Shown: piece by piece, positions 1,792-20,986 of the stretch
Numbering within the stretch: position 1 is the first letter of the stretch
Layout: each line of letters begins with the position of its first letter
Source: Candidatus Bathyarchaeota archaeon
Lineage (GTDB): Archaea; Thermoproteota; Bathyarchaeia; 40CM-2-53-6
NCBI GenBank assembly: GCA_963726255.1
Contig: CAVSBL010000002.1
Location: forward strand, 2,080,001 to 2,144,000
Direction: 5' to 3'
Length of the DNA stretch: 64,000 nt
The notes under the pieces: generated by a model
Database searches by the model: none
The model's input: only the letters and a program-made list of their open reading frames with translations
What the model was told of the DNA's origin: nothing
Program-made: the position numbers and the translations under genes

Positions 1792-1989
1792 TAAGGTGGG
1801 GAACCCGCCGACCGCACAAAATTGCGCTCTAAGGATACTTAATGCTTTGCCATCACACCGCTCCTAGGCTAACGTGTAGACAACATCAAACAAAGGGCTA
1901 ATCCAGCCGAACAATCTTTCCAGGCTTCAAAGCGTCGAACGATCCCTACTTCACGAAAGCTTTAGTAATATCCGCTTAAGTATCGCGAT

Positions 1990-3132: not shown

Positions 3133-3278
3133 ATCTTTAGAGACCGCAATTGGCGCCGATTCCTGCGTTTGGTCATGCCTTATGGCATAATTATTCGAAC
3201 GAGTTGAATCTACGTACCTCGTGGCTCCTAGGGCAATATTCTTGTCGTTATGAAAGGCGTTAAATAACGATTCATATT

Positions 3279-5285: not shown

Positions 5286-5288
5286 ACT

Positions 5289-5312
5289 TGGAACACGGAA
5301 ACCCGTGTTCCA
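5289..5312 (+). terminator. Perfect 10-bp stem hairpin right after the 668-aa gene
   Basis: TGGAACACGG-AAAC-CCGTGTTCCA starting 4 nt after the stop codon. Confidence 0.5.
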
Positions 5313-5373
5313 CTTAATTTCCACTCAAGGCATTTCTGTCATGCTCCATCCAAGCGCGTAACGCCGGGTAGTG

Positions 5374-5460
5374 TCGTCGGCCGCAATCGTATTGTCCACT
5401 CTCTTCCTATCCGCATTGCTGACGTCAGCGAAGATTGGCAAGAGACTTCACCCAGCCTAA
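5374..5460 (+). pseudogene. Orphan 3' end of a CFI-box-CTERM gene (paralogue of 3046..3132)
   Basis: Reads SSAAIVLSTLFLSALLTSAKIGKRLHPA-stop versus SSAAIVLSTLFLSALLTSAMIGKKLQAD-stop; an in-frame stop at 5359-5361 lies just upstream. Confidence 0.9.
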
Positions 5461-5531
5461 CTGCACGGAAAGACCGAAACAGCAGCCACGACAAACCCAC
5501 TCCGCAATTTCACGATCACACTTTCCGTGCT

Positions 5532-5729
5532 CAACGTGGAATCCCTCAAAACCAGGACCTAGCCTTCACGGGAACATTATCATCAGTCACAACAACCACG
5601 CCACTGACCACAACTAGCGAAATGGTAACGACAACTACACCCATACCTGAATTCCCGGCGTTGGCATTGGCGCTGCTTGCCGCGTTGGGCGTGGCGTTCG
5701 CAACATTCTACAAGAAGACTCGGCGTTAA
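5532..5729 (+). pseudogene. Orphan alternative C-terminus of the 1990..3132 protein ending in a PEF-CTERM anchor
   Basis: 5532..5602 matches 2326..2396 at 66/71 nt (QRGIPQNQDLAFTGTLSSVTTTTP), then a Thr linker, PIPEFP, a TM helix and KKTRR-stop. Confidence 0.9.
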
Positions 5730-5776
5730 CCCTTCAGGTTCTCCATTTCTTACAGGTCCTACATTTTGTCTGACAA

Positions 5777-6367
5777 CTAAGATTCAGTGTACGACAAAAT
5801 TGTGGTGTGGCACACCCAGAAACCTGGTGTGTCAAGTTTCCGGTTTCTTCGTCTTGATGTAGCCTGATTGCGTTTTTTCGGAAGCACTAACGCAATTATT
5901 AGCGTGGCCGTGAGGGTGATTCCGATTAGACCTATGATGGCTTGATCGAATTCTGGGACGGGGCGCACGCAGACTAGAAAGTTGGTTATGCTACCCGCTA
6001 CCGTGATTTGTTGCAACCCGGGCGGGTGAGAGGATGGGCTGGTGAAAGTTTGCGTATTGTTTCCTGAGATTTCCACAACTGTGATGCTGTAGTAGGAATA
6101 GGTGGTGCTGGAAGTTTGCAGAAGTTGCACGTAGATTACTCCCCTGTAATGGCCTGTGCCGTTGTAGGGGGCAAGATACCCCGTAACGGAGGTCGCAGTT
6201 CCGTTCGCAAACTTGCCTGCGACCCCGGCGAGGCTGTAGTAATCGGAAGACGGCGCAGTAAGCTGATAATTGGAGTAGCAAGTTTGTGTTGCGGCTTCAG
6301 GCAATACCAAGGCTATAGCTAGGACGGCGAACAACCCGCCCCATAACAGCACTTTCACCGGAAGCAT
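5777..6367 (-). CDS. Secreted protein with PEF-CTERM-like anchor
   Basis: Likely start MLPVKVLLWGG at 6367 (signal peptide); VPEFDQ followed by a TM helix and PKKRN. Confidence 0.75.
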   Translation of the reverse strand: MLPVKVLLWGGLFAVLAIALVLPEAATQTCYSNYQLTAPSSDYYSLAGVAGKFANGTATSVTGYLAPYNGTGHYRGVIYVQLLQTSSTTYSYYSITVVEISGNNTQTFTSPSSHPPGLQQITVAGSITNFLVCVRPVPEFDQAIIGLIGITLTATLIIALVLPKKRNQATSRRRNRKLDTPGFWVCHTTILSYTES

Positions 6368-6587
6368 GCCCCCTAACTCGTATACGACTCGGGCCTGGAA
6401 TTTGAACCCACTTCGACCCCCTTCGACAATTGTCGTATGAAAAATCTGATTATCTGCTAATCGACGCGTTTCAATACTTAGGCTCCCATTATGCGCACTT
6501 AATGGCATCTTCGTGTAAGACGACTTCGCCAAGTAAATGAAAATATGGTTTAAGTATGCAATTGGTATCATTTGTAAACGATACGCA

Positions 6588-6908
6588 ATGACGTTGCGGC
6601 CGCTGGCGACAAGGGTGCCCAAGGAAGTCGAGCATGAGATACAAGACGTTATGGATTTCCTCAAAATCGAGAAGGCCCAGGCTGTCAGGATGATTCTGGA
6701 GATTGGAATTTCAGAGTGGAAGAAGAGAACGGCGATTGAGCTTCTAAGGGATGGAAGAGTAACCTTCGCAAAAGCCGCGAAACTAGCCAACCTGGACCTA
6801 TGGGACTTTGCGGATGTGGTAAGGGATAGGAAGGTAGAGTGGGTTAGCACCCCTGCTAGTGAGCTGGAAGTTGAGGCCAGCAAGGCCTCAAGGGCCGCAA
6901 ACGAATGA
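6588..6908 (+). CDS. UPF0175-family antitoxin
   Basis: AIELLRDGRVTFAKAAKLANLDLWDF signature; overlaps the downstream PIN gene (ATGA). Confidence 0.85.
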   Translation: MTLRPLATRVPKEVEHEIQDVMDFLKIEKAQAVRMILEIGISEWKKRTAIELLRDGRVTFAKAAKLANLDLWDFADVVRDRKVEWVSTPASELEVEASKASRAANE

Positions 6909-7417
6909 AATCCCTCATATTCGATTCTACGCCTCTAATCTACCTGACAAGAGTTGGACTCGTCAGACTGTTCGAACTTATTCCAGCCCAGAAGTTCGTT
7001 GCCCGTTCGGTTTTCAGGGAAGTGGTCGAGCGCGGGAAAGTGAAAGGATTAGCAGATGCATTAGCGCTGGAGGCTCTTTTCGACGCGAAAACCATAACGA
7101 TCAGTGAGCCATCGAAGAAAGCAGTTTTGCGCATGTTTACCAGCATAAGCGGCTTGGAGGAAGCCGATGCTGAAACCCTGGCCATCGCGAAGGAACAGGG
7201 TTATCGTGCCGTTCTAGACGACCTTCTAGCGAGAAAGGTAGCGAGAACCTACGGGATTGATTTCGTGGGAACCCCCTACTTGCTAATGATTGCAACCAAT
7301 ACTCGGATACTCACGAAAAAAGAGGCAACGAAGGCAGTCGACGAGATGATTGAAGCCGGCTGGAGATGCGGCCCCGAGCTATACCGCGAGATCCTGCGAT
7401 TGATCGAGCATAGCTGA
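6905..7417 (+). CDS. PIN-domain toxin (DUF3368-like)
   Basis: IFDSTPLI, VFREV, ADAETLAIA, LDDLLARKVA, GTPYLL motifs. Confidence 0.85.
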   Translation: MKSLIFDSTPLIYLTRVGLVRLFELIPAQKFVARSVFREVVERGKVKGLADALALEALFDAKTITISEPSKKAVLRMFTSISGLEEADAETLAIAKEQGYRAVLDDLLARKVARTYGIDFVGTPYLLMIATNTRILTKKEATKAVDEMIEAGWRCGPELYREILRLIEHS

Positions 7418-7444
7418 ATCCCGGCAAAAGAGAAAGTGACTTGC

Positions 7445-7960
7445 CTAGGCTTTGCGGCTTGACGTTCTTCTGCGCTTGAGGAAGAATAGGCTGAGCGCAA
7501 CGGCGGCGATTCCTACTACGCCAATTACAATGAGTTCGAACCCTGGGGTTGGCTGCGCTGGGTCGTGGACGTGGATTGTTGTTGAAGCCCCCAGCGTTTT
7601 CGTCATGGCATCGTTTCCCAGCAATCTCATGAAAGCAGAGGCTATGATTGTGTAGCCACCTGCAGTCGTTGGTGTCCATTTTTCGCTAACTATCAAAGCG
7701 TCGGCCGTGACGTGTGTGGATGAGTAGGTTGTTTGGTTTGAAGCGTTCAGTACTTGGATTTGGATTACGTAATTGTGGGCGATCATGGGTTGCATGCAGC
7801 CCGGAAGCAGGGGGAGAAAGGTTACGGTGATGTTCACACGCTCGCCGACAGCGTAATCGTCCCGATCGGTTTGGACGATTAGGGAACTGCACGCCCGGAC
7901 ATTAATTGAAGCAGCGCCGGCAAGGACTGGAAAAACCGACGCTAGGACTAAAGCCATCAT
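7445..7960 (-). CDS. Secreted Ig-like protein with PGF-CTERM-like anchor (possibly 5'-clipped)
   Basis: TDRDDYAVGERVNITV Ig-like motif; TPGFE, TM helix, KRRR tail. Confidence 0.75.
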   Translation of the reverse strand: MMALVLASVFPVLAGAASINVRACSSLIVQTDRDDYAVGERVNITVTFLPLLPGCMQPMIAHNYVIQIQVLNASNQTTYSSTHVTADALIVSEKWTPTTAGGYTIIASAFMRLLGNDAMTKTLGASTTIHVHDPAQPTPGFELIVIGVVGIAAVALSLFFLKRRRTSSRKA

Positions 7961-7987
7961 TAGGCTAAGGAATACGGAACGGGCGAT

Positions 7988-8806
7988 TTGCCTTTGCGAT
8001 CATCTTGCTCCTTCAGTCCGTCACCTGCTGTTCCAGACTATATTAGCACACTCACGATAAGCACGGAGCCTTCGACGCCAGCAGGGTCTTACGACGTTAT
8101 TGTGAACGGCACAGTCGGGATCGTGACTAACTCGACTAGCTTCAACCTGGTTGTGAATCAGCATCAACAATCCTGCACGTTGACCTCTCTCCCCTCAATG
8201 TACAATTGCCCGTTACCGTTCGTGCAGGGTTGGAACCTGTTTTCACTGCCAGTCACGCCTGTGGCTAACAGCACATTCCCGAACACTGTCGACGGCATCT
8301 TCGGTTCTAACCCTCAGTTTGGTTTCATGAGCAATGTGAGCAGCATCTTCGCGTACACTTCGGGAACATGGCAAACCTGTATGGTGACTAAACAAGGTTC
8401 AGAGGCGAATGCGAAGTACACCTGCACAGGGGCTTTGAAGAACTTGGTTGACGGCAGGGGGTACTGGGTTTACGCTAAGGTAGCGTTCACTTTGAACAAT
8501 CCAAACAACCTCGCTCCGACTTGGGGTGGGCTGGTCGGTTCGGTCATTCCCTCAACCTCTACACCACCAACATACTCGCTGACTGCGGGCTGGAATCTTG
8601 TAGGGTACAAGCCGCAACCTGACCCAGCTGTGTCGGAAACGGTTTCCACATACTTGACCAGCCTGCTCGGCAGCAGCTACGACCCTAACAATGTCTGGGT
8701 CTACGATAGTGCAACAGCGCGGTGGGCTCGTGGCACGGAGACGACGCTGGAGCCCGGCCAAGCGTTCTGGGTCTTCATGCTAACCCCGGCCCAGCTCCGC
8801 CCATAA
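7988..8806 (+). pseudogene. 5'-truncated surface protein: Ig-like fragment plus two GWNL repeats (TLRP copy 3)
   Basis: No signal peptide; begins mid-domain (STLTISTEPSTPAGSYDVIVNGT); head-to-head 27 bp from the divergent gene; GWNLFSLP and GWNLVGYKPQP repeats, ends AQLRP. Confidence 0.75.
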
Positions 8807-8830
8807 CCCGTCCCAATCAGTTGCCAGATA

Positions 8831-9061
8831 TACTCGCTGACTGCAGGATGGAACCTGATCGGCTACAAACCCCAACCCCGCGTTCAAAATGAAACTGTAA
8901 GTCAATACCTCATCAGCATCAGCGGAAGCTACGACCCGAACAACGTTTTCGTTTACAACAACCTAACCGGTTCATGGACTCGCGGCGGACCCTCAACTCA
9001 ACTTGTCTCTGGAGAAGTCATGTGGATTCTAATGGCCTCATCCGCTACGCTGAGGCCGTAA
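8831..9061 (+). repeat. TLRP copy 4: start-less copy of the terminal GWNL repeat
   Basis: YSLTAGWNLIGYKPQPRVQNETVSQYLISISGSYDPNNVFVYNNLTGSWTRGGPSTQLVSGEVMWILMASSATLRP-TAA; same frame as 7988..8806. Confidence 0.9.
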
Positions 9062-9171
9062 CACCCAGCCACAATGACCGGAGGGCATTCCCTCGTCAGC
9101 TTGGCAACGCCCTCAAGGTGGATGTAATCAACTGATGATTAGTGCTGTGAGCTGTCCATTCGTGAGGGCGT

Positions 9172-9597
9172 CTAATTGCGTGTCTTCTTGATTAGGTGGG
9201 AGGGTTCGGTTCTTGGAACGTCGAGTTTGTCGAAATGCTTGTCGTAGCTTACAATGGCCTCTACTCCTAATCTCTTTGCAACGTAATATTGCAGCGCGTC
9301 GTCAAAATCCAGAGATTCTCTCTCAGTTAGCATCGCTGCAGACATCTCATCCGCTACGCCGGTCTCAAAGACGGTGAGCCCAAGCGAATTATCTAGATTC
9401 CTGAGGAAGGTGAGGATTGGTTCTCCTGAGCCAAGCACAGCTTCCACTGCGTGTACGGTGAAATGGGTGATAACCGCTTCAATCCTGCCCTTTGAGACAG
9501 CACTAAGTAAAGCTTCACAATCATCAGCCCTACTTTGCCCCAGCAATAATTCAAGGAAGACGTTCGTATCCAGTAGAATCAATCTTGGTTCGACCAA
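9172..9597 (-). CDS. vapC: VapC PIN-domain toxin
   Basis: LLDTNVFLE, LDFDDALQYY, IVSYDKHFD. Confidence 0.9.
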   Translation of the reverse strand: MVEPRLILLDTNVFLELLLGQSRADDCEALLSAVSKGRIEAVITHFTVHAVEAVLGSGEPILTFLRNLDNSLGLTVFETGVADEMSAAMLTERESLDFDDALQYYVAKRLGVEAIVSYDKHFDKLDVPRTEPSHLIKKTRN

Positions 9598-9815
9598 AGC
9601 CTATGCTGCAATTGAACAGAGGAACCCTTCTTCCCCGTCCTCAAAGTGCCCTTCAAAGAAGCCCAATCCACTGACCCTGACATGGAGAATTTCGTGATCA
9701 CATCCTCCACGGCTTTCTTGATCGTCCCCTTCTTGTACCCGTACTTTTCCATGGCCTTCTTCCTGAACTTCCTAGCAAGAGCATCATCAACCTCGACTTT
9801 TATTGTTTCGGTCAT
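9579..9815 (-). CDS. vapB: Ribbon-helix-helix-type antitoxin
   Basis: 78 aa, TIKVEVDDALARKFR beta-alpha pattern, overlaps vapC. Confidence 0.75.
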   Translation of the reverse strand: MTETIKVEVDDALARKFRKKAMEKYGYKKGTIKKAVEDVITKFSMSGSVDWASLKGTLRTGKKGSSVQLQHRLWSNQD

Positions 9816-10064
9816 ATGTCCATATCCCCCAAATGTCCATTACTCGCCCAACCTAAAAGAGTTAAGGTATCTACGCGTGCAGTCACGTGTAAATCGAGGG
9901 AAATTACGCCGCCACCCTCGTTACAATAGCTGCGCCTGAGGCCGCGGCGATCTGCCGCCAACGCTTCTACGTAGAAAGTTGCGCGTCCACGAATCCCACC
10001 GGTCCGAGAATACCGACTGAGAAACCAGGAATTAATCCGTTTAAAGAACGAAATATTGCTGGCA

Positions 10065-10454
10065 CTAAAACCATGTTGTCTTCACGTTAGCTATTGATTT
10101 GATGTGGTCGTCGTCCGTGAAGCAAACCAGCTTCTTGATCTTCGCAGTTGCGGCAATTATTGCGTCTGCGATTGGAAAATCTCTGCCTTGGGAAACTTTA
10201 ACCTCAGCAGACTCGGCGGCTATGTCAGAATTAATGTCTATGACTTCAAAGTCTCTCTCAATAGCAGATTTTCTTATCTTTGCCACATCACGGCCTTCAA
10301 CTTCGAGGCTTATTCTGTATACTTCGTGAATGGTAATGGCTGATACGTATCTACGTTTTCGAGCCTGTAGTTCCGACTTGACCTTCAGTCGCAGACCACG
10401 TTCTGCAGTGTAGGTTGCGATGAAGAATCTTGTGTCATAAAGTGTGTCAGGCAT
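10065..10454 (-). CDS. vapC: VapC PIN-domain toxin
   Basis: YDTRFF, TIHEV, IADAIIAATA, FTDDDH. Confidence 0.9.
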   Translation of the reverse strand: MPDTLYDTRFFIATYTAERGLRLKVKSELQARKRRYVSAITIHEVYRISLEVEGRDVAKIRKSAIERDFEVIDINSDIAAESAEVKVSQGRDFPIADAIIAATAKIKKLVCFTDDDHIKSIANVKTTWF

Positions 10455-10668
10455 CTTCTCGCCTGATCTGGTCTAGTCTTCGCTTCATTTCGTCGAAGCC
10501 TTTTTTGCTGCTTCCAATGAGGTCGATCGTCGACCGAGCTTTTCTGAACATTACTCCCTCACCGGTGTCAATTACTTGGAGCTTCGCTCCTTGGGACATG
10601 GCATACTTCTCCCGCAACTCTTTGGGGATAGTTGTCTGGCCCTTCCGGGTTACAGTGACGGTAGTCAA
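10447..10668 (-). CDS. vapB: AbrB/MazE-family antitoxin
   Basis: VTVTRKGQTTIPKELREKY signature. Confidence 0.9.
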   Translation of the reverse strand: MTTVTVTRKGQTTIPKELREKYAMSQGAKLQVIDTGEGVMFRKARSTIDLIGSSKKGFDEMKRRLDQIRREDA

Positions 10669-10719
10669 TCCTGATTCAGATCAAGTGTGGTTTGGGTAGT
10701 ATTTATCAGTGACGGTAGT
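10653..10719. promoter_or_regulatory. 13-bp direct repeat across the antitoxin start and promoter (candidate autorepression operator)
   Basis: CAGTGACGGTAGT at 10653-10665 and 10707-10719. Confidence 0.45.
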
Positions 10720-10934
10720 ACTGTTAACTTCGGTACTACTTCATGCTCCTGAAGCAGGTCCGTTTCAAACCTGGGCGTTAACATGCAGTCAATGGTGCTT
10801 GATGTGTGGACAGCCGTACGGGACTCATTTAACCCAATAGATCTTGGGCTCAGACCCCATTGATCCCAAGATTGTCTGGGAATGCTGCCGGAAAATGCAC
10901 CCAGGACGAGACGATATGTGACCGGCCCCGCCCC

Positions 10935-11006
10935 ACATCAACTCAACTAGTCCATGGAGAAGTCGTGTGGATCCTAAGGGCCTCATCCGCTGCACTGAGG
11001 CCGTGA
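10935..11006 (+). repeat. TLRP copy 5 (short remnant)
   Basis: TSTQLVHGEVVWILRASSAALRP-TGA; closest to copy 4, with similar downstream flank. Confidence 0.9.
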
Positions 11007-11165
11007 GAATTCAGTCACAAGAACCGCGCCTGAGGCCTAAACCAGCTTAGGGTTGCCTTCGCTTGGCACCGTTTGGCACCACCCCAAGATGGGTGGATCA
11101 ACCGTCCCCGCTGCGAATGGTTGCAGCATTATTTGGCCGTGAGTTCCTTCGGTCCGAACGTTTGA

Positions 11166-11555
11166 TTAGATCATGTAAACTTCTGGTAATCCTCGAAAAT
11201 GCTGGTCCCCGGTAACAACCTTCCCGCCTCTATCACGTGCAGTTGAAAGTACAATTGAATCAGCCAACCCCCAACCCGGAACACGTTTCTTCATCACCAC
11301 ATCCAGCTTAGCGGCTTCGACAGCCAATTCCTCACCGAGAACCACAAGCGCACTTCTCGATTTGATGAAAGCCCTTCGGAGCTCCGCCTTCTCGGCGGCC
11401 TCGCTTCTCAGAATCTTAGCGTATATCTCTGCCAAGCATATTGATGGTGTGAGCTTCTCATTGACTTCAGAGTCAACAATTGCTTTGACTTTCCTTCCGC
11501 CGTCGGTTCCCATGAAGTATTCTAGCCAGGCGTGGGAATCTATAATGTACTTCAA
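11166..11555 (-). CDS. vapC: VapC PIN-domain toxin
   Basis: IIDSHAWLEYF, CLAEI, LADSIVLSTA, VTGDQHF. Confidence 0.9.
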   Translation of the reverse strand: MKYIIDSHAWLEYFMGTDGGRKVKAIVDSEVNEKLTPSICLAEIYAKILRSEAAEKAELRRAFIKSRSALVVLGEELAVEAAKLDVVMKKRVPGWGLADSIVLSTARDRGGKVVTGDQHFRGLPEVYMI

Positions 11556-11737
11556 GTTCGGTCCCTATGGTCGCGGAGGTCCCTCAAGGACGTCTTGTCC
11601 ATTGTGCCGAACATGCTCTCTCCCTTCAGCAAGGCTTCGGCTAGGATTGCGTTAATGGCGTCTGAGATTCCTCTCGGGCCGTACTTCTTTTTGAGAATCT
11701 CATACAGGTCTTCTCTAAGCAACACTGTCGTCTTCAT
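11552..11737 (-). CDS. vapB: Small antitoxin
   Basis: 61 aa, KTTVLLREDLYEILKK RHH-like, 4-nt overlap with vapC. Confidence 0.8.
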   Translation of the reverse strand: MKTTVLLREDLYEILKKKYGPRGISDAINAILAEALLKGESMFGTMDKTSLRDLRDHRDRT

Positions 11738-11750
11738 GGCAAATACGTAA

Positions 11751-11778
11751 CCGTAAACATAAACATAAACCTTTACGG
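11751..11778. promoter_or_regulatory. Inverted repeat upstream of the antitoxin (candidate operator)
   Basis: CCGTAAA-(CATAAACATAAACC)-TTTACGG. Confidence 0.45.
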
Positions 11779-11791
11779 CTTCGCATCTACC

Positions 11792-11968
11792 ATGAGAGGT
11801 AACCGCGAAACCTACCTAATGAGCACCACAGGAAGTTATGAAACAAACAGCATTTGGGTTTACGATAGTTTAACCTCGGTTTGCGTTTGGGCTGACTCGA
11901 GCTACATGCTTCAGCCTGGTGTGGGAATGTGGATCCTTATGACCGCGCCCGCGACGCTCAGACCGTAA
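11792..11968 (+). repeat. TLRP copy 6 (remnant; open 58-aa frame from ATG 11792)
   Basis: MRGNRETYLMSTTGSYETNSIWVYDSLTSVCVWADSSYMLQPGVGMWILMTAPATLRP-TAA. Confidence 0.9.
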
Positions 11969-11984
11969 CCCATGCTGAACTTAA

Positions 11985-12338
11985 TCAAATGTCCCGGATG
12001 ATGTTGGGAATATCGCCGAGAATTATTTGGGTGATTTCGACGAAGCCACGGAACTTCCCCGCCTTAAACCAAGGCGTTTGGCACACCAACTTTCGCACTC
12101 CCCCCTTCTGCGTAGTGTAAACGTTTGCCTGCTTTTTCTCTATAAGCTCCTTGAGTTTCGCCCGTGCCGATTCCGGGTGGCAATCAAACACATTAGTGCC
12201 AATCAGCTGCTGACCCCCATCGTCCTTGAAGTCTTCGGCCGCCTTCGCGTTCATCTCCAGAATCATTCCCGCGGAATCGCACACAGTAATTGCAGCAGGA
12301 AATTCTTCCACCCACGAATGATTAGTGACTTTCGCCAA
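11985..12338 (-). CDS. Stand-alone PAS-domain protein
   Basis: ITVCDSAGMILEMNAKA...LIGTNVFDCHP PAS signature. Confidence 0.8.
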   Translation of the reverse strand: MAKVTNHSWVEEFPAAITVCDSAGMILEMNAKAAEDFKDDGGQQLIGTNVFDCHPESARAKLKELIEKKQANVYTTQKGGVRKLVCQTPWFKAGKFRGFVEITQIILGDIPNIIRDI

Positions 12339-12554
12339 ATTCGCCTCACAACTTCCTAGTTGAATTAAAACCGAGCCCTCCTTTAGAATGCTTTACTCCT
12401 TATCCTTAGAGGAAATCACTCAAGATTAGCGGCCAAGTCTTGCAGACTTCACCGGTGGCCTCTGTAACACTGAAATCGTATGACTGACGGGCACGTTACA
12501 GGTTGTACGTCAGTCTTAAGTACAACACTTTAGCTAAGGTTGTACTGGCAACCT

Positions 12555-12791
12555 ATGTCAGACGATGTCGTTCTGGTTACAAGGAAGGGTCAGATTACGA
12601 TCCCAGTCTCAAAGAGAAACAAGTACAGAATAAAGGAAGGCATGAAGGTTCTTGTAAAGGACAGTTCTGAGGGCATTCTCATTAAGCCAATTACACCGAT
12701 AGAAAGTTTAGCGGGAGTGGATGCAGGTAAAGTAAGCATTGCGCGGATGAAGCGTAAACTGGACGACATGAGGCGACAAGATAGGTACTGA
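12555..12791 (+). CDS. vapB: AbrB/MazE-family antitoxin
   Basis: VLVTRKGQITIP; ATG at 12555 chosen as the start. Confidence 0.9.
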   Translation: MSDDVVLVTRKGQITIPVSKRNKYRIKEGMKVLVKDSSEGILIKPITPIESLAGVDAGKVSIARMKRKLDDMRRQDRY

Positions 12792-12793
12792 AC

Positions 12794-13192
12794 ATGCCCG
12801 TCACGGTCGACACACGTTTCTTTTTGACTCATTACCTCGCGGACACTGATGAGCTTAAGTCGAGAACATCAGGAAAAATGATTGAACTTCAAAGAGAAGG
12901 CGCCGTGGTTCCTACGATCGTTCTCCATGAAGTGTATAAGTTCACTTACGAAAATGTCGGAAAGGAAGTCGCCTATCTTCGCGTCAACTCGATTATGAGC
13001 TCGGATATGAGGGTGGTTGATTTGACACCACAAATTGCTGTAGCATCAGCTAACCTGAGGTGTCGGCACAGGGGATTGCCGACAGCCGATTCGATTATTG
13101 CAGCAACGTGCATAGATACGAAATCGAAGCGCGTTCTCTCCGATGACCCACGCTTCAAGATGATCAAAGAAATCGAGGCCGAATGGCTCTAA
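12794..13192 (+). CDS. vapC: VapC PIN-domain toxin
   Basis: VDTRFF, VLHEV, TADSIIAATC, LSDDPRF. Confidence 0.9.
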   Translation: MPVTVDTRFFLTHYLADTDELKSRTSGKMIELQREGAVVPTIVLHEVYKFTYENVGKEVAYLRVNSIMSSDMRVVDLTPQIAVASANLRCRHRGLPTADSIIAATCIDTKSKRVLSDDPRFKMIKEIEAEWL

Positions 13193-13207
13193 CGCTCTCC
13201 ACGTGCC

Positions 13208-13288
13208 CGTACTAATGAGTACACATCGCTTCGGCCTGGGCAGGCAATGTGGATTCTTATGACCGCGCCTGCCACACTCCGACCTTAA
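13208..13288 (+). repeat. TLRP copy 7 (last remnant; right end of the island)
   Basis: RTNEYTSLRPGQAMWILMTAPATLRP-TAA. Confidence 0.9.
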
Positions 13289-13354
13289 CGCAGTCCCGTT
13301 CTCTTCGCAGTCACGGCGCCACATTGTGTATGCGCGCACGAATTAATCTGAATG

Positions 13355-13633
13355 TCATTCTAGTCTGCGAATGATGTGGTATCCGAATTGTGTTTTCACG
13401 ATGGGTGAGGTTTGTCCTTTCTGGAGCGCGAACGCGGTCTGCTCAAACTCTTTCACCATCTTCCCACGCGTGAACCAGCCGAGGTCGCCCCCACGTTTGC
13501 CCGAGCCCGGGTCGCGGGAGACCGCTTTCGCAATATTAGAGAACTTCTCACCCTTACTCAGCCGATCCAAGACCGCCTGCGCCTCCTTCTCAGTCTTCAC
13601 GAGAATATGGGTGCAGTGAACCTGATTGGGCAA
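13355..13633 (-). CDS. Parvulin-type peptidyl-prolyl isomerase
   Basis: HILVK, GGDLGWFTRGKMVKEFE, TQFGYHII. Confidence 0.95.
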   Translation of the reverse strand: MPNQVHCTHILVKTEKEAQAVLDRLSKGEKFSNIAKAVSRDPGSGKRGGDLGWFTRGKMVKEFEQTAFALQKGQTSPIVKTQFGYHIIRRLE

Positions 13634-13784
13634 AAGTAATCACTGGTACGAAACTCCGCCGAGTCCTCAATTAAGCATGTCGTCGACCTCGCCGATTACA
13701 AAGTGAGGAATCAGGGAGCATCAGGAGAGTTTGCTGAGTGGCGCGCACGGCATGTGAATCGAGGGCGTTTGCTAGTTAGTTAGG

Positions 13785-14252
13785 TTATTTGTTTCTGCGT
13801 ACGTAGTCTCTTTCCAGTGCTGACGCATACTTGTCCCAGATTTCGTGAGTATGCTTCAAATCTTGCGTTTTGGTGGGGGCGTTGCGTATCTTGTAGTGTT
13901 CTGTAAAGCGCATGTCAAGTCTGGTTCTTCGGGGGCCGAGTCTCGTTAACCTGTAATCACCCGTCTCGTCATCTTCATCGCCTATGAAGTCGAGGTGCCA
14001 CCACTTGCGGGGATACAGGGTCACTATGTTCACCCCAATCTTGGGCTTGCCTCCGCTCCTGTAAGCTGAAACGTAAATCACATGAGGTCCCCTCTTCAAC
14101 AGCATTTTCCGTTTCGCCTTCGAGCCAGTTATTTTCGGGTCGCTTTCCCGATAGTCTGTGCACCAATCGTAAACGAAGGGAAGTGGGGCGTGAATTATTT
14201 TTGAAACGCGGTAAGAGTAAGTCTTCGTGTAGCTATGCGCCAAGCCTAACAT
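13785..14252 (-). CDS. Hypothetical protein, possibly START/SRPBCC fold
   Basis: IHAPLPFVYDWCTD pattern resembles the SRPBCC N-terminus. Confidence 0.55.
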   Translation of the reverse strand: MLGLAHSYTKTYSYRVSKIIHAPLPFVYDWCTDYRESDPKITGSKAKRKMLLKRGPHVIYVSAYRSGGKPKIGVNIVTLYPRKWWHLDFIGDEDDETGDYRLTRLGPRRTRLDMRFTEHYKIRNAPTKTQDLKHTHEIWDKYASALERDYVRRNK

Positions 14253-14404
14253 TTCCTCGTAGTTACGTACGTCCCAGCATATTTAGCGTTACGTTTGAAA
14301 ATATGATTCCATGGTGTGTGCGCATCATCAGACCCATAGTAGATTGTCGCGGGCCTTATTCTTCGATATCCGTTTCGTGATGATGACGGTGAAAAAAGTT
14401 CAGC

Positions 14405-14695
14405 CTATTTCTTTGCGGTTTTGTCTGCTATTTCCTTGGCGATTTGTTCTTTGGTTTTGCCTTCCGTGCTTATGTTGAGGCTTCGAGCAGCCACCAGGAG
14501 AGGGTCTTGCGCGGTTTCGGTTGTAGTGCCCGTCGTGGGGTTCTTGATTGACGTTATCTCCTGCGTGCTTTTCTCGAACTCTTTCTTAGCCAGGCCTAAG
14601 GATCTGGCCAGTTCGGGGAGTTTCTTGGGGCCCCACAGGAAAATGACCAGTATGATCCCGATTATGATGAGCCATTCATACCCAATTAACGCCAT
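14405..14695 (-). CDS. tatA: Twin-arginine translocase TatA
   Basis: EWLIIIGIILVIFLWGPKKLPELARSLGLAKKEF. Confidence 0.92.
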   Translation of the reverse strand: MALIGYEWLIIIGIILVIFLWGPKKLPELARSLGLAKKEFEKSTQEITSIKNPTTGTTTETAQDPLLVAARSLNISTEGKTKEQIAKEIADKTAKK

Positions 14696-14847
14696 CGGAC
14701 TTCCGCAACCATGTTTCCTCTGAGCTTAATATAAGTGAATTTCTGCTGCCTACAATCCCATGAGGCCGGGTTTACTTTATCATGCGAACTTCTTGCGTCA
14801 AATCTCGGAAATGCTCATCGTGCGCTTTCCAAATTTTCCGCGTGGAA

Positions 14848-15648
14848 CTAAGTCCTCAATTTACCGAGAAAACTCAATACGTGCATATTGAAGTCCTCAG
14901 GGTTTTCCAAGTTGCTCATGTGCGCGGCGTTAGGGATCACATGAAATTCTGAGTTTGGAATTCTGCTGTGTATCTCCTGCGAGGCTGAAGGGGGAGTAAG
15001 CGTGTCATGTTCGCCCACAAGAATAAGCGTCGGAACCTTGATGCTCGCTAGTGCTTCAGTCGTGTCCGTCCTACTGGCTAAAGCTAACAATGCTCCGCAT
15101 ATGCCGGGCGAAGAATTCCCCTGAATTATCCGCTTAATCTTCTCAACCGCAGCTTTGTTGCCAGTAAAGCTCTGTGGGGCGAACACTGATTTGACAAAGT
15201 TATCCGCATACGCATTAACCCCATTGGTTTTGACGGATTTGATTGCGGCCGCGCGCTTCAACTTGGCTTCGTTGGAATCCGCCTTGGCCTGCGTGTCAGC
15301 GAGAATCAGCGCCCCCACCCTCTCAGGGTTCCTCTCAACCGTTCTAAGCGCAATGTACCCGCCCATCGATAGCCCGCAGAGCAGCGCTCTCTCAATCTTC
15401 AGGTAGTCGAGCAGCGCGAGTAGGTCGTCCACAAAGAATTCGAGCGTGTATTGTCCGTCGCCGACCCCGCTGCTCCCGAGCCCACGAAGGTCGTAAGCGA
15501 CAATCCGATACTGTTTCTGCAGCGCCTGGATTTGCGGGGTCCACATTTCATGGCTGAAGGGAAAGCCATGAATCAGAACGACCGCCAACGCGTTTGGAGC
15601 GCTAACATCAACAAAGTTGACCTCAATCCCATTGATAACCGCCTTCAT
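14848..15648 (-). CDS. Alpha/beta hydrolase (PcaD-like)
   Basis: HGFP, GLSMGG nucleophile elbow, GEHD, AAHMSNLE. Confidence 0.9.
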   Translation of the reverse strand: MKAVINGIEVNFVDVSAPNALAVVLIHGFPFSHEMWTPQIQALQKQYRIVAYDLRGLGSSGVGDGQYTLEFFVDDLLALLDYLKIERALLCGLSMGGYIALRTVERNPERVGALILADTQAKADSNEAKLKRAAAIKSVKTNGVNAYADNFVKSVFAPQSFTGNKAAVEKIKRIIQGNSSPGICGALLALASRTDTTEALASIKVPTLILVGEHDTLTPPSASQEIHSRIPNSEFHVIPNAAHMSNLENPEDFNMHVLSFLGKLRT

Positions 15649-15853
15649 CGATTGCCACTTTACCTACCGTTGCTGGCTTAGTAATCCGACAGTTCTGCTT
15701 AAGCCTCGCCCTAGCGATGTCATGCTGGAGAAAATGATGCCTAGCATATGTTATACACCCGCATTTCCCCTCCTGCCTTAAGGGCGAGTGACATGTTGTC
15801 CCCGCAAAACTAAGCCCATTAAACCTAATCGAGGCGTTTCACGCTAAGGACAC

Positions 15854-16966
15854 TTGTGGTTGCTAATGCTCAGGGTCATTATGCACATTGACATGGATGC
15901 CTTCTATTCCTCCGTCGAGCAACGCGAGAACCCAGACCTGAGAGGCCAGCCAGTCATCGTCGGCGCAGACCCGAAAGGGGGAAAGGGCAGGGGCGTCGTC
16001 GCTGGCTGTTCTTATGAGGCACGGAAGTTCGGTGTGCACTCCGCTCAACCAATCTCCATAGCCTACAGGCTTTGCCCGAACGGAGTCTACCTGAGGCCAA
16101 ACTTCACGCTCTACGAGCAGGTTTCAGAACGAATCATGGAACTGCTCAGGCGGTTCTCAGAGAAGCTCGAACCGATGAGTATCGATGAAGCCTTCATAGA
16201 CGTTTCAGACAAGCTGGCCAGCTTCGAGGAAGCCGCGGGGCTGGCCGCAAAGATAAAGCAAGAAGTGAAGGAGAAGGCTGAGTTCACCTGTTCGGTCGGC
16301 GTCGCGCCAAACAAATCAGTCGCCAAAATAGCCTCAGACTTCAAGAAACCTGACGGCCTAACCATAGTCCCACCAGAGAAAGTACAGAAATTTCTAGCTC
16401 CGCTACCGGTTGGCAAAATCAGTGGCATTGGTAAGAAGAGTTCCGAAGTTCTCGGCGCGAGGGGTATCAAAACCATTGGGGATTTAGCCGCAACCCATCC
16501 CAGCAAGTTGACTGAAGCTTTCGGCAAGTATGGGACGCGCCTATGGCAAGTTGCCAACGGCATAGATGATGAGGAGGTGATCACCTCCTTCTCGATTAAG
16601 TCCATCAGCTCCGAAACCACATTCGAAGAAGATGTGACTGACCGGGGGAAGGTAAGAGAGGCCTTTGCTTCGCTGATTCAAGACGTTCATGCCCGTGTCC
16701 AATCGCAGAATGTCCTCTTCCGCACTGTCGGCATCAAGGTACGCTTGGAAGATTTCACAACGTTCACGCGGGCCAAGACCCACCCGAGGTACAGCGACGA
16801 CAAAGCCGTCATGCAAGAATGCGTGAAGGAACTCTTCAGCGAATTCGAGAAGAGCCCGGCGAAAATTCGGTTAGTGGGCGTTCGGGTGGCTAACTTCAGG
16901 AGGATGGACGCCGAGCAGGAAACATTACTGAGTTGGGCGGCCAGGGGTTCAGGGGCGCAGGGCTAG
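15854..16966 (+). CDS. dinB: DNA polymerase IV (Y family)
   Basis: HIDMDAFYSSVE, SYEARKFGV, SIDEAFID, KIASDFKKPDG; true start may be a few codons downstream. Confidence 0.95.
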   Translation: MWLLMLRVIMHIDMDAFYSSVEQRENPDLRGQPVIVGADPKGGKGRGVVAGCSYEARKFGVHSAQPISIAYRLCPNGVYLRPNFTLYEQVSERIMELLRRFSEKLEPMSIDEAFIDVSDKLASFEEAAGLAAKIKQEVKEKAEFTCSVGVAPNKSVAKIASDFKKPDGLTIVPPEKVQKFLAPLPVGKISGIGKKSSEVLGARGIKTIGDLAATHPSKLTEAFGKYGTRLWQVANGIDDEEVITSFSIKSISSETTFEEDVTDRGKVREAFASLIQDVHARVQSQNVLFRTVGIKVRLEDFTTFTRAKTHPRYSDDKAVMQECVKELFSEFEKSPAKIRLVGVRVANFRRMDAEQETLLSWAARGSGAQG

Positions 16967-17145
16967 GGCCGCAAGATGCTGAGGTCAAGAGATGCCCTGT
17001 GAATGGCGCAATTATTGTCCGTAGGCGTGCCGCAACGAATACCGGCAAAGCGCCCTGCATGTCCTTGTAATTCAAGCCTCTTCGCGTTTGATTGGTGACC
17101 TGTGGCGTCATAAATGGTTTCCATGATGTGGGAGCCGTTTCGCTC

Positions 17146-17379
17146 TTACTGCTTAACCTTGGAGAGGTCGATCCTCTCCAATTCCACGCGCAATTCCACC
17201 AGCCACGCCGCGAATTGTCCTGCTTCTGGGCATACGATGCGTAGGTGTCCGTCAGGAAGAATCGTGATGCTCCCGTTCTCTTCGGTTTTTAGGGGGATGA
17301 ATATGGACTCTCGGTGCAGGTTGAATGAGTCCGTTATCTCCAGAATCCTGAGGATCTGGTCGGGGCGTAGAGCGCTCAT
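17146..17379 (-). CDS. Small hypothetical protein
   Basis: 77-aa ATG ORF filling the intergenic gap, plausible composition. Confidence 0.55.
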   Translation of the reverse strand: MSALRPDQILRILEITDSFNLHRESIFIPLKTEENGSITILPDGHLRIVCPEAGQFAAWLVELRVELERIDLSKVKQ

Positions 17380-17527
17380 CCTTGTTCGCTGGCCTGTAGC
17401 CGGCTACTTACTGGCAATTGATTAAGGCAGCCACTGCATTTAGTTTAGTTATTCTGTAGTATCCAACTGCTACTCTATATGCTAAACATAAGACACGACC
17501 TTTCACGTAACACCTTTTGCGATATCC

Positions 17528-18133
17528 ATGCAAGCGGAGCTCGCTCATCGGAGAGTAGACTCTCTAAGCGAAGTATTTCTCGAAGACGTATACGCCATCC
17601 CCGGCGGGCACAAGGTCAAGGAATGTATTCAATGCGGCACCTGTAGCGCCTCCTGTCCCACAAGCTACGCGATGGACTACACACCAAGAGAGGTCATCGC
17701 AGCGCTCAGGGCTGGCATGCTTGACCGTGTTCTGATGAGCAACACAATCTGGCTCTGCGCCTCATGCTACTCCTGCACCGTCAGGTGCCCATCAGGAATC
17801 AAACTCACGGACGTCATGTACGAGCTCAAACGGCTGGCAATCGAGTTCAACCTCGTCCCCAAGAACGTCAAAACGCCCATAGTATCGAAACTGTTCGTCA
17901 ACATCGTCGATAAGTACGGTCGCATCTCAGAAACTGAACTCGTTAGCAAATTCATGATGAAGACGAACCCACTATCAACCCTCAAAATGATACCTCGGGC
18001 CTACAAGTTATTCATGCGGGGGAGGCTACCGCTCATTCCTCACCGAATCAAAGGAACACGCGACCTACGCAAGAGCACTGAGATGCTGGTTTCCGGCGTG
18101 CATCCGGGAACAGCCTCCAAGGGGGCGCAGTAG
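17528..18133 (+). CDS. hdrC: Heterodisulfide reductase subunit C
   Basis: CIQCGTCSASCP and CASCYSCTVRCP [4Fe-4S] motifs. Confidence 0.92.
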   Translation: MQAELAHRRVDSLSEVFLEDVYAIPGGHKVKECIQCGTCSASCPTSYAMDYTPREVIAALRAGMLDRVLMSNTIWLCASCYSCTVRCPSGIKLTDVMYELKRLAIEFNLVPKNVKTPIVSKLFVNIVDKYGRISETELVSKFMMKTNPLSTLKMIPRAYKLFMRGRLPLIPHRIKGTRDLRKSTEMLVSGVHPGTASKGAQ

Positions 18134-18137
18134 AAAG

Positions 18138-19043
18138 TTGCAATCTCAACTTGAATTCTCGTATTACCCTGGTTGCTCGGTTGAGGGAATGAACAAATCC
18201 TACGACAAAGCTAGCCGCTTAGTCTGCGAGGCTCTCGGCATCAACCTAGCCGAGCTCAATGACTGGAACTGTTGCGGTGCCACCTCATACATGGCCATCA
18301 ACGAACAGAGGGCGCACGTTCTCTCAGCAAGAAATTTGGCGTTGGCGGAGAAAGAGAAGAAAGACCTCGTAGTCGTCTGCCCTGCCTGCCTAACAACCCT
18401 AACCAAAACCAATCGCTACATGGGCGAAGATCCGAGGCTGAACAGAACAATCAACTCAGCTCTGAGCGCCGCGGGCCTGCGGTACCAGGGTGGCGCGAGG
18501 GTTAGGCATCTTCTAGAAGTGATCGTTAACGAGGTGGGCGAAGCCAGAGTCAAGTCCAGGGTAAGAAAGTCGCTCATGGGCCTCATGGTCGCGCCGTATT
18601 ATGGTTGCCAATTAACTCGGCCTTTCGGAGAAATCGACGACAAGGAATTCCCAACGATACTCGACAAACTGCTCTCTTGGTTAGGAGCGAAACCCGTCGC
18701 TTTTCCGATGAAGACGAAGTGCTGCGGCGGCATGCTAATGATGACTAACGAAGCCGTTGCATTGGGGTTGACGAGAAACCTTCTGGCTTCAGCGAAACAA
18801 AATGGGGCAGAGTGCATTGCTACTCTTTGTCCACTGTGCCACATGAATTTGGAAGCGTACCAAGGCAACGTGAACAAGCTCTTTGGAACAAGCTTCAACG
18901 TTCCAATACTTTACTTCACACAATTGCTGGGCCTCGCCTTCGGTTTCTCGCGAAAATCGCTAGGCGTTGACGAAGAACTCACGCCTAGCAAAGAATTGCT
19001 GAAGAAAACTTGGTGGTTGTACGAGAGTTGTCAGAAAAGATAG
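18138..19043 (+). CDS. hdrB: Heterodisulfide reductase subunit B
   Basis: YYPGC, WNCCGA, CPAC, YYGC, KCCGG, CPLCHMNL CCG domains. Confidence 0.93.
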   Translation: MQSQLEFSYYPGCSVEGMNKSYDKASRLVCEALGINLAELNDWNCCGATSYMAINEQRAHVLSARNLALAEKEKKDLVVVCPACLTTLTKTNRYMGEDPRLNRTINSALSAAGLRYQGGARVRHLLEVIVNEVGEARVKSRVRKSLMGLMVAPYYGCQLTRPFGEIDDKEFPTILDKLLSWLGAKPVAFPMKTKCCGGMLMMTNEAVALGLTRNLLASAKQNGAECIATLCPLCHMNLEAYQGNVNKLFGTSFNVPILYFTQLLGLAFGFSRKSLGVDEELTPSKELLKKTWWLYESCQKR

Positions 19044-20986
19044 GCGTCTACGTGTGCCATTGCGGGACGAACATAGCCCGCACCGTGGACTGCAAGGCCG
19101 TCGCTGAATATGCGCGTTGCCTCCCCAACGTAGTTGTAGCCCGGGATTACCAGTACACGTGCTCCGACCCCGGCCAAGAAATGATCAGGAACGATATCAG
19201 CGAATTTGGGTTGACGCGGGTCGTCGTTGCCTCATGCTCACCCTTGATGCATGAGCCGACCTTCAGGCGCGCCGTTGCAGGTGGTGGCCTGAACCCGTTC
19301 CTGTTTCAAATGGCCAACATTCGGGAGCAATGTTCGTGGATAACCGAAGACAGAGAGTTGGCCACTGAACGCGCTAAGGCCATTGTCGGCGCAGCCGTAA
19401 TGCGCGTGATTTTCCATGAAGTGCTCGAGGTCAAGAAGGTTCCAGTGAATCCGGACGTGCTGATCGTTGGAGGCGGTATCACGGGAATTGAGGCTGCGCT
19501 TCAGATTGCGGATTCAGGGAAGAAGGTGTACCTCGTCGAGAAGGAACCCTCAATTGGGGGTTATATGGCGCGGTTCGACAAGACTTTTCCAACACTCGAC
19601 TGTGCGGCCTGTATCCTTACTCCCAAGATGGTATCCGTCGGCCAGCACCCAAACATTGAACTCCTAACTTACAGCGACGTCGTCGGCTTCTCAGGGTATG
19701 TAGGGAACTTCACCGCACGAATACGCAAGAGGCCTAGGTACGTTGACGAGGAGAAATGCACTGGCTGTGGCCAATGTGAGCAAAAATGCCCGTTGAGTGT
19801 GCCAAGCGAGTTCGAATGTGGCTTGGGTAAGAGGAAGGCAATCTACAGGCCGTTTCCACAAGCCGTCCCGGGCACACCGGTCATAGACAAGGAACACTGC
19901 CTATACTTCACAAGAGGCGCCTGTAAGGTCTGCGTCAAATTCTGCCCGAAAGGCGCAATCGACTTCGAACAAAAAGAGAGTTTCCTCGAAGTGCCGGTTG
20001 GCTCCGCAATCCTAGCCACAGGGTTTGATGTTTTCGACGGCGCGCGTGTGAAAGAATACGGGTATAGCAGATTTCCCAACGTCATAACGAGCCTAGAATT
20101 CGAGCGCCTAACGCATGCATCGGGGCCAACCGCAGGCAATATAGTTCTCAAGAACGGCAAAACCCCTGAGAGCATAGCAATCATTCACTGCGTCGGAAGC
20201 CGAGACCACAACTACAACGAGTACTGCTCACGCGTCTGCTGCATGTACTCACTGAAGACAGCTCACCTAGTTCGGGAGAAAACAGCCGGGAAGGTGTATG
20301 AATTCTACATTGATATGCGGGCGGCTGGGAAAGGCTACGAGGAATTCTACAAACGGCTACTCGAGGAAGACGTGACCTTCGTTAGGGGAAGAGTGGCCGA
20401 GGTCACAGACGTAGCCGAAACTGCCGCCGAGAAAGGCAAGCTCGTGGTTATGGCTGAAGACACACTCCTAGGCATCGTACGCAGGATCCCAGTTGACATG
20501 GTCATCCTTAGCGTTGGGCTCGAACCGAGGCGGGACGCAACAGATGTTGCCCACACATTCTCCATCAGCAGAAGCAAAGACGGGTTCTTCCTAGAGAAAC
20601 ATCCGAAACTCGCGCCCGTCTCCACAGCCGTCGACGGCGTCTTCGTGGCGGGTGCTTGCCAGGGACCTAAGGACATCCCCGATAGTGTTGCGCAGGGGGC
20701 AGCCGCAGCGGCCAACGTTCTCTCATTGATTGATAGGAAAACAGTGGAACTTGAATCAGCAATAGCGCTGATCAACGAGGCATCATGTTCCGGCTGCAAG
20801 ATATGCGTCGAATTATGCCCGTACCATGCAATAACCTACGACGAGGAAAGAAAACTCGCCGTGGTAAACGAAGCCTTATGCAAGGGATGCGGCGTCTGCG
20901 TGGCAGCCTGTCCTTCCAGTGCGATTGAACAGCAGAACTTCACGAACCCGCAGCTCCTAGCCGAGATTGAAGCTATCTGCACATGA
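19010..20986 (+). CDS. hdrA: Heterodisulfide reductase subunit A
   Basis: IGVYVCHCGTNIA, GGGITG, DKTFPTLDC, CSRVCCMY, inserted and C-terminal ferredoxin domains. Confidence 0.95.
   Translation: MVVVRELSEKIGVYVCHCGTNIARTVDCKAVAEYARCLPNVVVARDYQYTCSDPGQEMIRNDISEFGLTRVVVASCSPLMHEPTFRRAVAGGGLNPFLFQMANIREQCSWITEDRELATERAKAIVGAAVMRVIFHEVLEVKKVPVNPDVLIVGGGITGIEAALQIADSGKKVYLVEKEPSIGGYMARFDKTFPTLDCAACILTPKMVSVGQHPNIELLTYSDVVGFSGYVGNFTARIRKRPRYVDEEKCTGCGQCEQKCPLSVPSEFECGLGKRKAIYRPFPQAVPGTPVIDKEHCLYFTRGACKVCVKFCPKGAIDFEQKESFLEVPVGSAILATGFDVFDGARVKEYGYSRFPNVITSLEFERLTHASGPTAGNIVLKNGKTPESIAIIHCVGSRDHNYNEYCSRVCCMYSLKTAHLVREKTAGKVYEFYIDMRAAGKGYEEFYKRLLEEDVTFVRGRVAEVTDVAETAAEKGKLVVMAEDTLLGIVRRIPVDMVILSVGLEPRRDATDVAHTFSISRSKDGFFLEKHPKLAPVSTAVDGVFVAGACQGPKDIPDSVAQGAAAAANVLSLIDRKTVELESAIALINEASCSGCKICVELCPYHAITYDEERKLAVVNEALCKGCGVCVAACPSSAIEQQNFTNPQLLAEIEAICT

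Follow-up and report, generated by a model that had tools for sequence, protein, structure and literature searches.

Displaced or relic gene 3′ ends are a known kind of recombination scar. C-terminal displacement occurs at contact-dependent growth inhibition (CDI) and type VI secretion system (T6SS) effector loci, similar to that at rhs loci. For rhs C-terminal displacement arrays, homologous recombination with circular intermediates is proposed in the portion of the rhs work drawn on here (Jackson et al. 2009, PMC2935791). The subject of this report is a clean example of such scars: an array of truncated gene ends, interspersed with toxin-antitoxin (TA) genes, in a stretch of 64,000 nucleotides from a Candidatus Bathyarchaeota archaeon (contig CAVSBL010000002.1, positions 2,080,001–2,144,000). 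The whole stretch is called the window, and coordinates refer to it unless another contig is named; the genome is labelled G000. Two of the gene ends, f6 and f7, encode the same terminal peptide in different codons, and are probably non-functional relics, truncated at the 5′ end, that stem from two distinct genes or alleles within a single secreted-enzyme family.

Gene ends can also be duplicated by site-specific integration. The e14 prophage of Escherichia coli is inserted in icd, with icdC as a C-terminal pseudogene, by means of an integrase and a defined attachment site; in the part of that source used here, the gene end is duplicated around the insert, the two ends differ conservatively, and recombination removes the insert (PMC13626634). 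Archaeal elements occupy 3′-distal regions of genes and form tandem arrays that reuse one site, and VapBC genes are an occasional cargo; in the sections of that work cited here, they have short, exact att or target-duplication sites together with integrases or casposases (Krupovic et al. 2019, PMC6563490).

Of these, rhs C-terminal displacement is the closest described process. Both there and in the window, dissociated gene ends from different alleles are stacked downstream of a family member, and the repertoire varies between strains; the portion of the rhs account used here proposes no dedicated recombinase (PMC2935791). The same portion describes a conserved core upstream and displaced tips that are variable and toxic and come with immunity genes, whereas in the window it is the conserved end that has been displaced, the VapBC-type pairs between the ends are unrelated to them, and the upstream gene, B, is truncated. 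Unlike e14, the array has TA genes of 1–2 kb as cargo and no common DNA core, and the genome gave no matches to tyrosine recombinases. With the archaeal elements it shares an archaeal chromosome, gene 3′ ends and an arrayed layout, but neither exact sites nor integrases were found, casposases not having been searched for. A 2026 paper on TA erosion (PMC13617665) was considered as a further parallel and set aside; the part of it at hand concerns relics of the TA genes themselves and not of neighboring genes.

Two matching gene ends and their protein family

The gene ends in question are copy 6 (f6, 11741–11968) and copy 7 (f7, 13223–13288), both on the forward strand. Their last 14 codons (11927–11968 and 13247–13288) differ at six bases, all six synonymous, and both encode MWILMTAPATLRP followed by TAA. 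In the f6 copy the differences are at 11935, 11950, 11953, 11956, 11960 and 11965. Third codon positions account for five of these sites and the first position of AGA/CGA for the other, and transitions and transversions number three each. When six random substitutions were simulated in 13 codons, the peptide was kept in 12 of 173,980 trials at a kappa of 1, 10 of 168,873 at a kappa of 2 and 8 of 162,905 at a kappa of 4, which puts the chance of six synonymous changes out of six at about 5–7e-5. A binomial comparison of the 6 synonymous to 0 nonsynonymous changes in the last 13 codons with the neutral expectation at kappa = 4 gave p = 0.0002. A 23-mer common to the two ends occurs twice in the window, versus no occurrence in 100 shuffles.

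The sequence-only reading of this DNA had singled out these 14-codon ends, and its strings, coordinates and synonymy were all found again. Its statement that the remnants differ only at synonymous sites is right for the last 13 codons and wrong for the first 8 of the about 21 codons that can be aligned (13223–13285 with 11903–11965), where the nonsynonymous changes sit (LQPGVG versus LRPGQA). Over the 21 codons the Nei-Gojobori counts are 7.8 synonymous differences at 16.3 sites and 8.2 nonsynonymous differences at 46.7 sites. The ratio of nonsynonymous to synonymous divergence (dN/dS) is 0.27, with a rough Fisher p of 0.017; a ratio near 1 over the full alignable part, which had been named as evidence against separate functional genes, is thus not what is observed.

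Both ends belong to an unnamed C-terminal domain (CTD) of about 80 residues that closes with LRP-stop; all of f4 to f7 match its profile. The domain caps many secreted enzymes within one Candidatus Bathyarchaeia genus. In full-length proteins it is preceded by pro-kumamolisin/subtilase peptidase, papain-like, GH32-like, GH130-like, PQQ glucose dehydrogenase, NHL propeller or solute-binding protein domains. There are nine CTD sites in G000, four of them in long open frames of 586–918 codons, and f4 as a query matched the CTD in 6 of 22 congeners and in none of 18 other genomes of the order. By record titles the relatives are metagenome-assembled genomes of Candidatus Bathyarchaeia, with distant ones (28–41%) in Dehalococcoidia and others. 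The CTD had no match in Pfam, NCBIfam or PDB sequences (best PDB E 0.73), and in the ESM Atlas solely ‘hypothetical protein’ clusters. Its predicted fold is small and mostly beta (predicted local distance difference test score, pLDDT, 89.9); Foldseek found nothing in PDB at E ≤ 0.001 (best 0.12), and the best VIA-align Z of 5.5, to RCK_C/TrkA_C domains, is too low to mean more than a common arrangement. The profile collected 3832 cluster representatives at E ≤ 0.001, nearly all matched C-terminally, and a domain of this extent merits a family entry of its own.

In the last 24 codons of 32 intact CTD genes, the major base at the third position of degenerate codons has a frequency of only 0.34–0.56; at the first two positions of the codons for P, G, W, L and P the frequency is 0.9–1.0. 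For most pairs of CTD copies the proportion of synonymous differences (pS) is 0.6–0.9, near saturation, and that of nonsynonymous differences (pN) is 0.13–0.4. The end of the domain is thus conserved at the level of the protein and not of the DNA. As selection acts on the protein only and synonymous sites saturate, relics of different members, which ceased to be genes at different times, can match in peptide and not in codons.

The relationships of the copies agree with separate descent. In a maximum-likelihood (ML) tree of 55 CTD copies and 144 columns, f6, its orthologue in the related genome G021 and three intact genes grouped in one starred clade (96/96), and f7 was placed elsewhere, beside an intact gene from the same genome. 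In nucleotide identity the copies nearest to f7 are intact genes, at 82.5% and 81%, with f6 in fifth place at 74.6%; BLAST matched f7 best to the 3′ end of an intact frame of 1286 codons in G021 (87% over 69 nt). A relic at the same position as f7 in L092, a metagenome contig, is identical to it at 45 of 63 coding and 51 of 56 flanking positions (Fisher p 0.0097), and is a different CTD allele on the same flank. The core of the sequence-only reading, that f6 and f7 came to differ while each was still a working part of its own gene, is therefore upheld by protein-level conservation, the near-saturated pS, the dN/dS of 0.27 and the intact genes nearest to f7.

Decay and recombination of the relics

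Conserved genes border the island that holds the array: one of UbiA type to the left, and those for PpiC, TatA and a hydrolase to the right. The right-hand series includes B (copy 3, from 7979 or 7988 to 8806, forward strand), a 5′-truncated relic of about 272 codons of a pro-kumamolisin/subtilase-type peptidase gene, followed by f4 (copy 4, 8807–9061, forward), a whole CTD of 84 codons plus stop in frame right behind the TAA of B. TA1 (9172–9815, reverse) consists of a PIN toxin gene (9172–9597) and a small upstream partner without a family match (9579–9815), and TA2 (10065–10668, reverse) of a PIN toxin and a MazE/AbrB-type antitoxin. After f5 (copy 5, ~10932–11006, forward), the last ~23 codons and TGA, comes TA3 (11166–11737, reverse), again a PIN toxin with a small upstream partner that has no family match. 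The last 46 codons of f6 (11828–11965) are alignable and its 5′ part is wrecked. A gene for a small PAS-domain protein (11985–12338, reverse) and TA4 (12540–13192, forward), a MazE/AbrB-type antitoxin and PIN toxin, separate it from f7, which holds the last ~21 codons of the CTD and TAA. The conserved right flank is a PpiC-type rotamase gene (13355–13633, reverse), with a dN/dS of 0.05 against G021.

TA1 to TA4 are predicted VapBC-like type II TA cassettes, in each of which a PIN gene overlaps or abuts a small partner gene. All four PIN genes are above the Pfam cut-off, two having MazE/AbrB-type and two small unmatched partners. They are the four best of the 11 PIN matches in G000, and stand within 4.5 kb.

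Orthologues of f6 were found at syntenic loci in G021 (92% identical) and in L092 (~92%), the latter from a scan of metagenome contigs with protein B that gave 30 loci, most at 66% identity or less. Compared with G021 and L092, the f6 of G000 is shortened by two deletions, of 28 and 26 nt, and that of L092 has independent deletions of 8 nt and 1 nt. The conserved Trp has been lost from f6 in G000 and twice from f4 in G021, where the f4 stop is also gone. G021 has no f7; 233 unrelated nt take its place. The 13-residue peptide varies between orthologous relics, reading MWILMTAPATLRP, MWIFMTASATLRP or MWILMTAPTMLRP in f6 and VWILRASSAALRP or VWILMASSTALRP in f5. Since the indels of f6 are independent in three related genomes and the invariant Trp is lost, the relics are to all appearance dead.

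The three haplotypes differ in content. In G000 the order is B (truncated), f4, TA1, TA2, f5, TA3, f6, PAS, TA4, f7, PpiC; in G021 it is B (909 aa), f4, TA3, f6, PAS, TA4, the 233 unrelated nt, PpiC. L092 has the last 48 nt of gene A with flank, and further on TA2, f5, TA3, f6, PAS, a longer relic and PpiC, without TA4. The island is hypervariable: CTD genes and VapBC-type TA cassettes have been gained, lost and reordered between strains. B itself is an intact 909-aa peptidase gene in G021 and is cut to its last ~272 codons in G000, so that in G000 the entire right-hand series consists of relics. Gene A (3279–5285), intact in the window, is a relic in L092, where 16899–17032 corresponds to 5237–5370 of the window: the last 48 nt of the gene are 100% identical and the whole with its flank 97%, the neighboring genes being ~90% identical. 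This relic begins at the codon just before the invariant Trp, and its junction has a microhomology of 2–3 nt.

Contigs of four public DNA runs, including X2 and X4, supplied environmental haplotypes. Run X2 has a joint from 9058 to 11049, another from 13209 to 13340 with 233 letters between, and 4680 extra letters at the truncation point of B. Run X4 has a joint from 12320 to 13234 and one from 10965 back to 9021, which gives the order TA2, hybrid relic, TA1. TA4 is absent from L092 and from the X4 haplotype, the polymorphism being a replacement that has one of its boundaries within the PAS gene. TA1 and TA2 are bracketed in G000 by the end of f4 and by f5 (67 nt, 88% identical), and G021 is without TA1, TA2 and f5. 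Both products of recombination between f4 and f5 thus exist, the deletion form in G021 and X2 and the circle or duplication form in X4. The relics are recombination joints, at which the environmental haplotypes break, and they act by homology and not through a site-specific enzyme.

A second family repeats the pattern. The segment 5368–5530 (forward strand) comes from a CFI-box gene of the L100 allele type, of which it keeps the 3′ end (~28 codons) together with the native downstream flank, and it sits downstream of gene A and of an intact CFI-box-CTERM protein gene (1990–3132, forward) of the L092 allele type. In the first 19 codons, all eight differences between the relic and the intact copy are synonymous. 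Here an intact upstream gene with an incoming replacement end is present; deletion alone cannot make a second, allelic gene end, and displacement by DNA from another strain is therefore the simplest explanation for the CFI-box relic. A further piece that resembles the middle of the CFI-box gene lies just beyond it at 5532–5618.

Other features of the window

The window opens with copy 1 (1–123, forward), the CTD 3′ end of a 918-codon frame that enters from upstream and is composed of papain-like, InlB B-repeat, GH32-like and CTD parts. Gene A, which is copy 2 (forward strand), encodes an intact secreted protein of 668 aa with an InlB B-repeat, a weak GH130-like match and a CTD end; intact CTD members near the relics are thus present here and upstream of the window. 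A further TA pair, a UPF0175 antitoxin with a DUF3368/PIN-like toxin, lies at 6537–7417 (forward). The spacers of the array held no other gene relics apart from the CFI-box pieces and a dispersed repeat; no tRNA or tmRNA genes were found in the window, and Rfam had no match in 1–20000.

In both G000 and G021, f4 starts in frame after the TAA of B with no spacer (window 8804–8809; L034 10099–10101). A CTD relic in G015 also stands in frame, behind the stop of msrB, although the frame could be chance (1 in 3); this relic resembles an att-like footprint of an integrated element since nearly all deleted. In G021, a block between the TatA and hydrolase genes (L034, G021:C121, 1452–4267), not present in G000, contains a TA pair and a CTD relic, together with an intact gene for a CTD-bearing glucose/sorbosone dehydrogenase of 631 aa. 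Just past f5, the segment 11014–11046 (..ACCGCGCC-TGAGGCCTAA) looks like the end of a CTD gene broken by a gap of 7 nt and is present in L092 too, and a 24-nt look-alike of 11014–11037 lies between TA1 and TA2 at 9920–9943; both resemblances may be chance.

The dispersed repeat is structured and ~115 nt long, and only its 3′ half is present in the array (11049–11103, no strand assigned). In G021 a full copy abuts the relic, starting exactly where the stop of f4 should be. There are about 10 highly conserved copies in G000, near 408.6, 640.9, 671.1, 885.7, 1061.8, 1170.3, 1209.4, 1338.2 and 2247.5 kb of G000:C2 among other places, and most are between housekeeping genes. The repeat is also found in L034, L036, L040 and L047, and in other species of the genus at 90% identity or more. 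A multi-hairpin fold is predicted, with little covariation, and Rfam gave no match apart from one chance-level hit. In the four metagenome runs it has 4–5x depth and many loose ends.

Probable formation of the relics and alternative explanations

A relic would arise when incoming DNA or a deletion overwrites or cuts a resident gene, with one homologous junction and one illegitimate junction. The promoterless 3′ end would remain joined to its own downstream flank and would then decay. While still similar, relics could act as direct repeats for homologous recombination, and recombination between them would delete, duplicate or permute the intervening cassettes, with no site-specific recombinase or fixed DNA site. 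The 3′ ends would persist, and the 5′ ends would not, because an end that lacks a promoter is silent and the homology extends no further than the stop codon. Such are the order of events and the truncation mechanism that we infer. Homology-facilitated illegitimate recombination pairs a homologous junction with one of microhomology and would leave 3′ relics of exactly this kind; it is known from transformable bacteria and not from this archaeal group.

The sample of CTD copies comprised 32 intact domains and, in addition, 23 short pieces extending to the end of the domain, two of them cut by contig ends. The native end is kept in all 23 pieces, one further fragment being without it, and their 5′ ends are at profile positions 1–63. 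In two G011 pairs, the homology between fragment and paralogue ends at the stop or within ~10 nt beyond. Taken together, the scattered 5′ ends, the homology that ends at the stop, the microhomology in L092 and TA homologues that stand elsewhere without relics fit overwriting or deletion better than elements carrying a gene end of their own.

Several observations speak against this account or narrow it. An approximately unbiased (AU) test does not reject a clade of f6, its orthologue and f7 (p 0.484), f7 giving 63 nt only, and the separation of the two lineages rests on ML placement and identity ranks over those 63 nt. No close intact parent was found for f6 or f4, the best intact relatives being 60–65% identical, and f5 arose by local duplication of the f4 end (88% over 67 nt; pS 0.20, pN 0.12), so that descent from separate genes does not cover every copy. 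Orthologous relics have dN/dS values below 1, namely 0.40 for f4 (11 synonymous to 15 nonsynonymous changes) and 0.29 for f6 (6 to 7), and the pooled last 13 codons show about 8.5 synonymous to 8 nonsynonymous changes. Neutrality is rejected in none of the three cases (p 0.09, 0.09 and 0.058), but all lean to a synonymous excess, behind which there may be residual constraint, conversion from live paralogues or small counts; the contrast between the six-to-zero count for f6 and f7 and the relic phase is marginal (Fisher p about 0.05–0.06). B, the gene upstream in the CTD array, is whole in G021 and truncated in G000, and there is no sign that f6 or f7 ever ended it. The X2 joint from 9058 to 11049 has just 28 nt on its shorter side, and G000 is metagenome-assembled with 9.3% estimated contamination. 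Tyrosine recombinases are found in 19 of 22 congeners, 1–12 in each, and past integrase-driven events in the genus are possible. Finally, the 56-codon relic behind msrB in G015 (L038, G015:C1, ~10200–10470) has direct repeats of ~28 nt that include the msrB stop.

Other explanations can draw on some of these observations. That a single remnant was duplicated locally to give f6 and f7, which then decayed neutrally and acquired six synonymous differences by luck, is highly improbable. The end of f4 and f5 are just such a pair and the AU test leaves room for an f6–f7 clade, but the simulated chance of such luck is minute (about 5–7e-5, as above), f7 is nearer to intact genes than to f6, the flanks of the two are unrelated, and the common ancestor of three genomes already carried f6 as a relic, which has undergone nonsynonymous changes and indels since. 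It is also quite unlikely that the remnants are kept for a function, whether as 13-residue peptides, as read-through extensions from the stop of B into f4, or as silent donor cassettes for conversion of CTD genes. The last 14 codons do begin with ATG in f4, f6 and f7 (GTG in f5), f4 is in frame right behind the TAA of B in two genomes, the dN/dS of orthologous relics is 0.3–0.4 and not 1, and conversion could yield different alleles on one flank, as seen for f7 and its positional counterpart. However, the peptide is not kept between orthologous relics, which bear indels, frameshifts, a lost stop and a lost invariant Trp; G021 does without f7 altogether; and the ATG is merely the M/L/F residue that precedes the invariant W in this family.

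Site-specific recombination would explain the layout of gene, cargo, relic, cargo, relic in another way, the relics being att-type sites at which TA-bearing integrative elements inserted serially into the 3′ end of a CTD gene, each bringing a replacement end in the way that e14 does for icd. This too is unlikely. In its favor are the 67-nt direct repeats that flank TA1 and TA2 and are missing in G021, the integrases of the congeners, a degraded integrase-like frame ~1 kb from a CTD gene in G011, the repeats that overlap the msrB stop in G015, and the known integration of elements into 3′-distal parts of archaeal protein genes, as far as the cited portion of that work goes (PMC6563490). Against it, the LRP-stop is spelled CTGAGGCCA, CTCCGCCCA, CTGAGGCCG, CTCAGACCG and CTCCGACCT, with no identical DNA core; as third positions in the CTD vary freely, there would be no nucleotide core for a site-specific enzyme. 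A search of G000 (98.5% complete) for PF00589 gave no matches, with positive controls in 14 of 14 genomes, serine recombinases and casposases not having been searched, and no integrase or other element gene lies within the array. The 5′ ends of the relics are scattered from domain position 1 to 63 of 81. Of 11 loci in other genomes with homologues of the TA1, TA2 and TA4 cassettes, none has a CTD relic and one has an intact CTD gene, and the TA4 polymorphism is a replacement that ends inside the PAS gene and not an insertion between repeats. The argument of the sequence-only reading against a DNA-level att site is supported on three of these grounds, the missing core, the lack of a tyrosine recombinase in G000 and the relic-free TA cassettes elsewhere, and the relics should be annotated neither as genes nor as att sites. 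An integron-like cassette platform with the repeats as attC-type sites is scarcely credible. Small promoter-bearing cassettes, many of them TA pairs, with short repeats between, the concentration of PIN genes and the strain-variable order all recall one, but there is no integron integrase by the array and no tyrosine recombinase in G000, the repeats are relics of coding sequence without a common DNA sequence, and the cassettes point both ways.

The account preferred here, of dead gene ends recombining by homology, has consequences beyond this locus. Synonymous-only differences can distinguish what is left of a formerly functional gene from a local copy in decay, even within 40 bases, and the test applied to f6 and f7 stood when the relics were compared with those of related genomes. 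It is a speculative and rather doubtful extension that conserved gene ends, CTD and CFI-box alike, are portable homology arms of a recombinase-free cassette exchange. If that were true, two relics would recombine and release the intervening cassettes as a circle, which could re-enter any sufficiently similar gene end, whether in its cell of origin or in a different one, and surface-protein genes and TA pairs would be shuffled in an integron-like manner through homologous recombination alone. As it stands, the array records the turnover of an island in uncultured Bathyarchaeia, in which CTD enzyme genes come and go, TA pairs accumulate, and dead gene ends stay behind as scars and as substrates for recombination, with no integrase.

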